Assembly (NCBI GenBank): GCA_051251855.1
Contig: JBPOGI010000004.1
Coordinates: forward strand, 256,001 to 320,000
DNA length: 64,000 nt
Reading direction: 5' to 3'
Source: Roseibacillus sp.
GTDB lineage: Bacteria > Verrucomicrobiota > Verrucomicrobiia > Verrucomicrobiales > Akkermansiaceae
The position numbers and the translations under genes are program-made. Below the pieces are notes generated by a model that was given only the letters and a program-made list of their open reading frames with translations, had not been told where the DNA came from and ran no database searches. Each line of letters starts with the position of its first letter. Positions within the stretch are counted from its first letter, which is position 1. Positions 46,720 through 48,332 of the stretch are shown one piece after another.

Positions 46720-47280
46720 TCACCCCTTTGCAGCGACCCGAGCCTCTTCCAGATACTCCAAACTGCCATGCTTCTCACACCAACCTTCTATGTAATCAAA
46801 GTCCAACTGGTCCTCTTGCCGAAGAAGGACTTTTACCACATCATCAAAATCTTTCGCTCTCGCCGCTCCCTTGGTCCAGCGAAGCTTCTGAACCACCACA
46901 TCTTCCGCCGACGCTATCCAAGTTTCGATTCCTTCCCCCAGGTCAACCCGCACTCTCCGTCGAAACCGTTCCTGGTCGAACTCATCTTCACTTAAATGAA
47001 AAACTTCAATTTCAAAGAGACTCCCTTCGGTAAAAATCAGCTTCTTCCGAGTCGCAGTAATCATCTCGAATCCACCTTGCGGATCCAGCATCATCCCCTC
47101 AGGTAAATCTTCTGACAAGCGACTCCATGACTGGTCATCAAACCTAAGAACAATATCAGCATCTTTAGTCGCTCGAGGAATTCCAAAATAGTTCGAGGAA
47201 AATGATCCAACCACCATATAAGGAATCTCCCGCTTATTCAGAAACTGAACAAATTGAGCCAATAATTTCGAACCCGTCAT
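46720..47280 (-). CDS. Pol-beta-superfamily nucleotidyltransferase
   Basis: YMVVGSFSS..G.PRATKDADIV (GS..DxD), EDVVVQKL.W, KDFDD, DFDYI..W. Start MTGSK overlaps the upstream stop (ATGA). Confidence 0.8.
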   Translation of the reverse strand: MTGSKLLAQFVQFLNKREIPYMVVGSFSSNYFGIPRATKDADIVLRFDDQSWSRLSEDLPEGMMLDPQGGFEMITATRKKLIFTEGSLFEIEVFHLSEDEFDQERFRRRVRVDLGEGIETWIASAEDVVVQKLRWTKGAARAKDFDDVVKVLLRQEDQLDFDYIEGWCEKHGSLEYLEEARVAAKG

Positions 47281-47513
47281 TTGCCCATTCTGTCCGCTAA
47301 TTTTAAAAGTCGCTTCAATTCCTGTCGCAACGCCGTTGCTGACCAGGTTGGATTCTGCGCCTTCAGCCCAGCAAGACTTACTCGACAAGCATCATCGAAC
47401 AACTCAACACCCGAGAAAAACCTCTCTCGATCACTCATCCGCCGCGCCTGCTCGACCTTACGAGCATCGCACTCCGCCGCCTCCTGGCGAATCTGTTCCG
47501 ACGTGATTTCCAC
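47277..47513 (-). CDS. Small helical partner protein of the nucleotidyltransferase (antitoxin-like)
   Basis: ARRMSDRERF....L.......AGLKAQNP.WS. Translationally coupled to the downstream gene. GTG start assumed. Confidence 0.7.
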   Translation of the reverse strand: MEITSEQIRQEAAECDARKVEQARRMSDRERFFSGVELFDDACRVSLAGLKAQNPTWSATALRQELKRLLKLADRMGK

Positions 47514-47630
47514 GGTCAAAGAATAGCCCACGCTCGCAGAAACCTCAACGCCCATTTCAATGGCTACGAACACCCTTCACACCCACGACTCTCTATTGCA
47601 AACTGCTCCATCTCAGTCTAAAACCAAGCC

Positions 47631-48158
47631 ATGAAGCTCTATCTGCTCGCACTGGCGCTGTTTCTCAGCTCCTGCGCCATGAACACCGGCAAGTTCGTTC
47701 CCGAGGAAAAACAGTCCCGTCTCCCCGACCTCTACGAGCGGGACCAATACAACCGCCTTGTCGGACTCCGCAGCTACGGAGCCAAAGATTACCTCCTCGT
47801 CTTCTTCTATCCCGAAGCCGACACCCCCGGATGAATCAAGCAATGCAAAGCACTGGAGTCTTCAGTGCAAAAACTCGCCAACGCCAAAGTCCGCGCCCTC
47901 GGAGTCTCTATGGACTCCATTTCCAAGCAAAAGGCCTTCTCTGATAAATACAACCTCACTTTCCCCCTCCTTTGCGACATCGACGGCTCCATGTGTGACA
48001 AATTCGAAGTCCCCCATCCCAACAACCGCCCTGCCCGCATCAGCTTCCTTTTCCACGACCAACAACTCATTTGGACCGACTACACCGTCACCCCTGCCCG
48101 TCACATTGACCACGCCCTCGAAGCCGTCGCGGAACATCGTTCTGGCACCCTCAACTAA
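47631..48158 (+). CDS. BCP/PrxQ-type peroxiredoxin lipoprotein with in-frame UGA at the peroxidatic position (probable selenocysteine)
   Basis: ORFs 47631-47834 and 47865-48158 are one frame. Read-through gives LVFFYPEADTPG-U-IKQC...LGVSMD...KAFSDKYNLTFPLLCD...ARISFL (175 aa). Lipobox LSSC. Confidence 0.85.
47850..47868 (+). promoter_or_regulatory. Candidate bacterial SECIS hairpin
   Basis: gcactgga-gtc-ttcagtgc: an 8-bp stem with one G-U pair and a GUC apical loop starting 23 nt after the UGA. Confidence 0.7.
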
Positions 48159-48167
48159 CCCCATCTT

Positions 48168-48332
48168 ATGAAAATCATCCTCATTCTTACCCCCCTCTTT
48201 GCACTCACTTCCTGCGCCCTCGTCACCACCCCGTTAAAAGTCGCAGGGAGTGCCGCTGGCGCCGCCATTAACATCACTGGTAAGGCTGTCGGTGCTGGAG
48301 TCAGCCACCTCGGCAAAGATAAATCCGAATAA
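48168..48332 (+). CDS. Small 54-aa lipoprotein (below ORF-track cut-off)
   Basis: MKIILILTPLFALTSCALVTTPLKVAGSAAGAAINITGKAVGAGVSHLGKDKSE*, lipobox LTSC, 9 nt after the peroxiredoxin stop. Confidence 0.8.
   Translation: MKIILILTPLFALTSCALVTTPLKVAGSAAGAAINITGKAVGAGVSHLGKDKSE

Follow-up and report, generated by a model that had tools for sequence, protein, structure and literature searches.

A single reading frame with one internal TGA

The window analysed here is a stretch of 64,000 nt from a genome of Roseibacillus sp. (Verrucomicrobiales, Akkermansiaceae; G000, about 95% complete) and, on its plus strand, it holds at 47631-48158 a single frame with one internal TGA at 47832-47834. Under translation table 11 this frame is divided into two ORFs (47631-47834 and 47865-48158, with an in-frame GTG at 47865), and it reads MKLYLL...LSSC...FFYPEADTPG-(TGA)-IKQC...GVSMD...FPLLCD...PARISF...TLN-(stop). 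When the TGA is translated as selenocysteine (Sec, U), the full CDS would encode a Sec-containing BCP/PrxQ peroxiredoxin lipoprotein of 175 aa with U68. A first-pass annotation had noticed two short ORFs of the same frame separated only by this TGA, its position at the Cys of the peroxiredoxin motif, and the integrity of the downstream GVSMD, FPLLCD and catalytic Arg. Frame and translation agree with the first observation, the alignment of the peroxidatic column with Cys homologues agrees with the second, and the downstream residues are indeed found in the translation, with the catalytic Arg136 (48036-48038, plus strand) invariant in 36/36 Sec and 24/24 Cys sequences.

Regarding the surroundings of the gene, no sigma-70 promoter match was found at it. 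A 54-aa lipoprotein-like ORF with a weak, below-cut-off match to DUF6726 lies 9 nt downstream (48168-48332, plus strand) and adjoins the gene in two other close genomes, and a divergent overlapping pair on the minus strand (46720-47573), formed by a 98-aa ORF and a nucleotidyltransferase-like ORF with a weak DUF6036 match, looks like a toxin-antitoxin-type module; just one of the other genomes examined has it beside the gene. The neighbours in the window are found again at just 4 of the 36 other loci compared; conservation of the neighbourhood stops at the closest genomes. The gene was also covered, in pieces, by contigs of four DNA runs; the rows listed leave 47832-47834 unaltered and give, for two runs from a single study, a paired A47852G/T47866C substitution.

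In public annotation such genes exist only as fragments, entries such as WP_189567341.1 and WP_200392100.1 comprising just the C-terminal half. In the same sense, the protein search, which covers entries of 96-307 aa without U, returned only fragments among the close matches, and the C-terminal database entries of 97-108 aa confirm the earlier expectation that standard annotation would split the gene. The closest named database proteins are from Roseibacillus, and named species carry close homologues.

Selenocysteine machinery and genetic code

The first-pass annotation had proposed a search for selA, selB, selC and selD and for a UCA-anticodon tRNA, and all of them are present in the genome, the four genes each above its curated cut-off. 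SelA is matched with an E value of 2e-112, SelB reaches 331 bits and has the winged-helix domains, SelD carries an in-frame TGA of its own, and the long-armed tRNA-Sec (anticodon UCA) scores 63.9 bits against a cut-off of 47. This tRNA-Sec is the sole UCA tRNA at default stringency, and a relaxed ARAGORN scan for other tRNAs gave only noise. Since TGA terminates 690 of the 3142 predicted genes of at least 150 aa, the code is not reassigned, and a genome-wide reassignment of TGA was rejected.

Could the frame nonetheless correspond to two genes, a 67-aa lipopeptide followed by a C-terminal protein of roughly 100 aa, or be read through as Cys or Trp without selenium? The 97-108-aa C-terminal proteins in the databases and the GTG at 47865 speak for two genes, but the stop would take away the catalytic residue and the annotated downstream start varies among orthologues. 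As for read-through without selenium, it is opposed by the tRNA inventory, with the long-armed tRNA-Sec as its only UCA member at default stringency, and by the fact that the TGA tracks the Sec machinery among genomes. Both variants, taken together, are very improbable.

Conservation of the TGA among orthologues

The orthologue column was another of the checks proposed at the outset, together with the possibility that all close relatives carried TGC or TGT, and the outcome favours recoding: 7 of the 8 other genomes of the genus carry an orthologue, all with TGA. Among 60 relatives, the 11 best matches (own gene included) have TGA and the next 19 loci fetched have TGC. A profile search of 301 genomes of the family gave 76 matches at E <= 1e-45, of which 59 were read (37 belonging to the TGA clade and 22 with Cys) and the remaining 17 are lower-scoring. 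Of the 37 TGA-clade loci in the family 36 are intact, and one (in G266) has a TAG directly before the TGA; with one further clade member from another family of the order (G051), the intact genes amount to 37, and the TGA is thus found in 37 genomes and kept down to about 40% protein identity. Residue counts given here refer to an aligned set of 36 TGA sequences and a close Cys set of 24. All 38 other close homologues read have Cys (TGC or TGT), including the 24 of that set and 14/14 further matches inspected from genera largely without SelA. A search of 401 genomes of the order at E <= 1e-52 returned only the two main genera (10/401), and among the matches listed in a species-wide scan TGA occurs in 11 of 80 loci, all from Akkermansiaceae, Verrucomicrobiaceae or Verrucomicrobiales. 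In the tree (midpoint root), the 36 aligned TGA sequences form one branch with support 97/99, sister to a Cys group.

The presence of the TGA goes hand in hand with that of the decoding machinery, in that SelA is found in 36 of the 37 genomes with an intact TGA gene and the exception, G286 (72% complete), still has SelB and tRNA-Sec, and 6 of the first 24 Cys homologues come from SelA-bearing genomes; kin are not independent, which makes this a pattern rather than a statistic. Selection on both halves is also alike: in a comparison of the six nearest genomes, the part before the TGA has a dN/dS of 0.075 and the part after it one of 0.079 (rough values, as dS is near saturation), so the relaxed selection downstream that a decaying gene might display is not seen. 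In short, a conserved in-frame UGA stands at the catalytic Cys of the homologues, with coding selection on both of its sides.

Some loci depart from this picture. Two TGA-bearing BCPs of the same family (L089 in G027 and L090 in G016) fall outside the clade, with a T-G-G-U loop and no lipobox, and L089 keeps a Cys at +5. The TAG that precedes the Sec TGA in G266 (L081, contig C118) replaces what is a Trp codon in the three closest relatives, and this copy looks broken or mis-assembled. In five loci (L087, L088, L091, L092 and L110) our own motif search gave no match.

These data bear on the simplest rival explanation, namely that the TGA is a true stop left by a recent nonsense mutation in a pseudogene, or an assembly error. 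TGA is after all an ordinary stop in this genome (690/3142), a Cys-form paralogue is kept, so that the Sec copy could be dispensable, and one relative (G266) has the added TAG. However, a true stop would hardly persist in 37 genomes while protein identity falls to about 40%, be confined to genomes with Sec machinery, and come with equal purifying selection on either side and with the nucleotide-level constraint over the hairpin described below. As judged from sequence comparison, conservation in effect refutes this explanation, whose probability we regard as practically negligible. The claim of a recoded 175-aa selenoprotein is supported by the sel machinery, the UCA tRNA, the conservation of the TGA and the equal selection on both sides, and what looks like a broken gene is almost certainly a single intact selenoprotein gene of a known family.

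The SECIS hairpin

A predicted bacterial SECIS hairpin occupies 47850-47868 (plus strand), as suggested by its fold, loop-G conservation and synonymous constraint. It consists of 8 bp closing a GUC loop (about -10.3 to -10.7 kcal/mol), whose G, at 47858, follows the UGA by 23 nt; this is where the first-pass annotation had placed a stem-loop with a GU-starting loop. Its stability is ordinary: over 69 nt the z-score against shuffles is -0.86, and 36 of 200 shuffles fold as well. The bSECIS rule applied, our own implementation of the consensus described in PMC13188914, asks for a loop of 3-9 nt with a G in its first two positions, 16-37 nt from the UGA, and an MFE <= -7.5; this gene passes it, as do 32/36 clade members (the other 4/36 fail), 9/24 Cys homologues and 59/200 true TGA stops. 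With such a z-score and so many true stops passing this loose rule, hairpin stability was rejected as stand-alone evidence.

The comparison among genomes is more informative. The loop G is invariant in 36/36 aligned clade members; directly below the loop, pairing reaches 97% over three base pairs, and six sequences show G-U in place of C-G. The proposed check on covariation gave a signal exceeding 500/500 shuffles, which ignore relatedness, and all slid controls, while the lower stem shifts register among lineages. Furthermore, synonymous divergence over codons 73-81 drops to 0.21 against 0.70 in the six closest genomes, and over the hairpin to 0.19 against 0.73-0.75 in a second group (n=27), the hairpin codons having, in these two separate sequence groups, the lowest synonymous divergence of 142 nine-codon windows (a drop of about 3.5-fold). 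The TGA in 36/36, the invariant loop G and this minimum of synonymous divergence together indicate that the hairpin is real despite its ordinary stability. A different function, as minus-strand terminator of a converging glycerol-kinase-like gene, was considered and rejected, given a single match against 0.8 expected by chance and the persistence of the hairpin in lineages with other neighbours.

Fold, active site and cysteines

The protein matches Pfam AhpC-TSA (E 6e-23, residues 30-146) across the TGA, and its AlphaFold model, built on an 11-sequence alignment, has a mean pLDDT of 89.9. The best Foldseek matches of this model are BCP/PrxQ structures (TM 0.72-0.77), with yeast nTPx, Sulfolobus Bcp1, M. 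tuberculosis BcpB and X. campestris PrxQ (XcPrxQ) at the top. Among NCBIfam models, none of bcp PRK09437, PrxQ NF053650, PrxU NF040737 and Prx-SUH NF045827 reaches its curated cut-off; the best score for this protein is 71.4 bits against a cut-off of 140, PrxU and Prx-SUH give no match at E <= 0.001, and one clade member scores 28 bits with PrxU (cut-off 270). The active-site loop P61-x3-T65-x2-U68 (47811-47834, plus strand) reads F-Y-P61-E-A-D-T65-P-G-U68, and its Y60, P61, T65 and position 68 are invariant in the 36 Sec and 24 Cys sequences, which, together with the distal Arg136, gives the PxxxT/SxxC(U) signature on a Prx fold. In a sub-branch (L078-L080) the loop changes from D-T-P-G-U to D/N-T-F-W-U, a change that may alter substrate access.

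What sets the clade apart is its cysteines. The Cys at +5 that forms CxxxxC is present in 0/36 members of the Sec clade vs 23/24 close Cys homologues, and no conserved Cys was found in helix 97-107 (helix 3) among the clade sequences read, so that neither the helix-2 nor the helix-3 resolving Cys of PrxQ proteins is found in the clade. The first-pass annotation had considered a lipoprotein signal and a UxxxC spacing, in place of CxxxxC, as the peculiarities of this protein. The lipobox Cys (36/36) and the lack of CxxxxC hold for the whole clade, but the UxxxC spacing does not, being found in only 6/36; judging from the alignment, the clade trait is the loss of the CxxxxC resolving Cys, rather than the UxxxC spacing. 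This latter spacing is due to Cys72 (U+4; 47844-47846, plus strand), a sublineage-specific and possible, unproven, resolving residue, with Cys in 6/36 and Val in 30/36 clade members and Ala or Gly in the Cys homologues. A second residue, Cys122 (47994-47996, plus strand), on a short helix (120-124), is Cys in 36/36 Sec sequences vs 0/24 close Cys homologues. An obligatory structural disulphide between Cys115 and Cys122 was rejected, as Cys115 is present in only 20/36.

Might one of these residues resolve the enzyme internally, through a selenenyl-sulphide with Cys122 in the whole clade or with Cys72 in the six-genome sublineage that includes this gene? The reversal between the Cys122 and +5 columns argues for such a role, and so do, for Cys72, its conservation with both TGC and TGT codons in six genomes whose synonymous sites are near saturation and its modelled location one helical turn from U68 (helix 66-77). 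Yet 6/68 distant Cys BCPs have a Cys in the 122 column too, 5 of them together with CxxxxC, and so does XcPrxQ, whose resolving Cys is the helix-3 Cys84 (a C84S structure entry is among the matches). Position 72, in turn, is Val, Ala or Gly in all others, which fits a buried hydrophobic site. As for the helix of Cys122, it is absent from the five resolving-Cys positions recognised for peroxiredoxins by Poole and Nelson (PMC4749874), where about two thirds of PrxQ are described as having a helix-2 or helix-3 resolving Cys and about one third as having none. No paper on the role of the residue equivalent to Cys122 was found in the open-access literature. Internal resolution appears therefore unlikely, and Cys122 is probably structural; its occurrence in distant Cys BCPs and XcPrxQ, on a helix outside the five resolving positions, favours a 1-Sec enzyme.

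Predicted lipid anchoring and proposed mechanism

The N-terminus reads as a lipoprotein signal peptide (47631-47675, plus strand) ending in the lipobox L-S-S-C15, with the Cys codon at 47673-47675. The lipoprotein signal claimed in the first-pass annotation is borne out by the lipobox column, which is Cys in 36/36 clade members vs 0/24 close Cys homologues, and a lipobox regular expression matches 34/36. The genome also has a signal peptidase II (PF01252), so that at sequence level the hydrophobic signal, the invariant lipobox Cys and the processing enzyme of a bacterial lipoprotein are all present.

According to the mechanism that we propose, SelB, acting on the in-frame SECIS hairpin, would deliver Sec-tRNA(UCA) to UGA codon 68, a step about which there can be little doubt, as machinery and signal are both present. 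The conserved lipobox predicts, with high probability, that Cys15 carries a lipid which holds the protein in the cell envelope. There, outside the cytoplasm, the U68 selenolate, held by P61, T65 and R136, would quite probably reduce H2O2 or organic peroxides, as its family does. With the resolving Cys missing from helix 2 as well as helix 3, the two positions used in PrxQ, the resulting selenenic acid would most likely be resolved directly by an outside dithiol, in a "1-Sec" mode. This dithiol may, with slightly better than even chances, be an exported ResA/TlpA-like thioredoxin-fold protein fed by a ScsB/DsbD-type transporter, by analogy with Caulobacter PprX. The Sec gene is a paralogue of an exported Cys-form PrxQ that the genome has retained as well. 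As a whole, the prediction of a Sec-decoded, lipid-anchored BCP/PrxQ peroxiredoxin that scavenges peroxides in the envelope is a likely explanation of this gene.

Candidates for the reductant exist in the genome: a 705-aa DsbD_N/DsbD_TM/thioredoxin transporter and six proteins that look exported and contain U-x-x-C or a similar motif; three of these have weak ResA/DsbE matches and one passes a VPGU selenoprotein cut-off. No recognised redox partner was found in the gene neighbourhood, and neither the transporter nor the UxxC genes are beside the peroxiredoxin. A bolder version, quite unlikely in our estimation, is a selenium redox relay in the envelope that would run from the ScsB-type transporter through the exported UxxC selenoproteins to the lipid-anchored Sec-PrxQ, resolved via Cys122 or Cys72. 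If this were true, Cys122 or Cys72 would add a resolving position to the five already recognised in peroxiredoxins.

Further in-frame TGA genes in the genome

A filtered screen of the genome for in-frame TGAs (with a gene-overlap filter) gave 269 candidates, from which 26 others were picked by eye and folded. About 18 of the 26 look like selenoproteins, many with a similar short loop and a G at position 1-2, and we take them to include formate dehydrogenase-like, MsrA-like, SelW-like and several thioredoxin-fold genes (labels assigned from motifs, except for seven that were scanned). These TGA and hairpin candidates are located in G000 at C1:1403243, C1:1584111, C1:1812084 (which adjoins selA), C6:461829, C6:486626(-), C7:93151 (SelD), C7:209947(-), C9:35000(-), C9:312528, C10:234380(-), C11:42440 and C11:99365, among others, and point to an extensive selenoproteome, of which a good part has export signals.

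Three adjoining, large, exported-looking paralogues of 841-1277 aa (L175; C6:417091, 420847 and 424896) each have a hairpin after an in-frame TGA that stands in the sequence D-L-U-S-V-Y-W-R. A 191-aa signal-peptide protein (L178; C6:711917 and 712145) is made of two repeated halves with a TGA and hairpin in each; it has no NCBIfam match at E <= 1e-5 and presumably resembles heavy-metal-binding domains. TGAs with hairpins are found, moreover, in long membrane-protein frames at C9:357797 and C1:1073661(-) (G-P-P-U-D-C and G-G-P-G-U).

Comparison with known systems

Sec-peroxiredoxins (PxxxTxxU, PF00578/COG1225) are an experimentally verified family, with a member from Eubacterium acidaminophilum (PMC13188914); the Sargasso Sea data yielded 43 genes assigned to COG1225 (PMC1088965), and a table of independent changes from Cys to Sec lists several (PMC1794560). 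The protein described here shares with them the Sec at the peroxidatic position of PxxxTxxU, the AhpC-TSA domain and a standard bacterial SECIS 3' of the UGA. Unlike them, as far as they are described in the accessible portions of these sources, the Verrucomicrobiales clade combines a conserved lipoprotein signal with the absence of a resolving Cys from the PrxQ positions, and no exported or lipidated members of the family are described in those portions of PMC13188914 and PMC1088965.

The most similar enzyme in terms of location is PprX of Caulobacter crescentus, a periplasmic BCP/PrxQ fed by ScsB and reported from alpha- and betaproteobacteria and cyanobacteria (PMC3322552). Both belong to the BCP/PrxQ subfamily, have an N-terminal export signal and lack CxxxxC, and the genome studied here has the DsbD_N/DsbD_TM/thioredoxin transporter. 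Unlike PprX, which is described as a Cys enzyme, the Sec protein would have a Sec nucleophile and a lipoprotein-type signal, and its gene is unlinked to the transporter. The nearest sister group is the exported Cys-form PrxQ of Verrucomicrobiales (PKADTPGCTKQAC type; the copy in the genome studied here is at G000:C7:84398-84820), at 34-44% identity, with the same fold and catalytic residues and mostly export-type N-termini, but, in contrast to the Sec clade, with CxxxxC in 23/24 and with no Cys at the lipobox column, no Cys122 and no conserved SECIS.

The combination of export and Sec is not new in itself, since exported selenoproteins are described in a bioRxiv report (10.1101/2022.07.06.499078), namely SaoB and the Sec forms of the lipoprotein family SaoX in Negativibacillus. 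These proteins likewise have Sec together with an export or lipoprotein signal and an annotation split at the TGA; unlike the Sec-PrxQ, they are described as having an ABC substrate-binding fold, in anaerobes, and not as peroxidases. In the open-access literature no paper was found on a Sec-peroxiredoxin that is periplasmic or a lipoprotein, or on this Verrucomicrobiales clade; no peroxiredoxin was found in the available part of PMC4807772, and a text search of the BSepDB paper (PMC13326102) gave no match, although BSepDB may still list these genes under Prx. The kind of enzyme is hence already known, and what is distinct is its lipid-anchored form without the usual resolving Cys.

Significance

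The reading of this gene as a selenoprotein corrects a systematic annotation error, whereby RefSeq and GenBank entries hold only an inactive C-terminal half. It would also mean that the oxidising cell envelope has a selenium peroxidase; even for Cys-peroxiredoxins, a first confirmation there came only in 2012 (PMC3322552). An exported Cys/CxxxxC paralogue and a Sec form without a resolving Cys, both kept in this genome, moreover make up a natural pair. One idea is that Sec resists over-oxidation. Through this pair, a question can be addressed: can selenium replace the resolving Cys?
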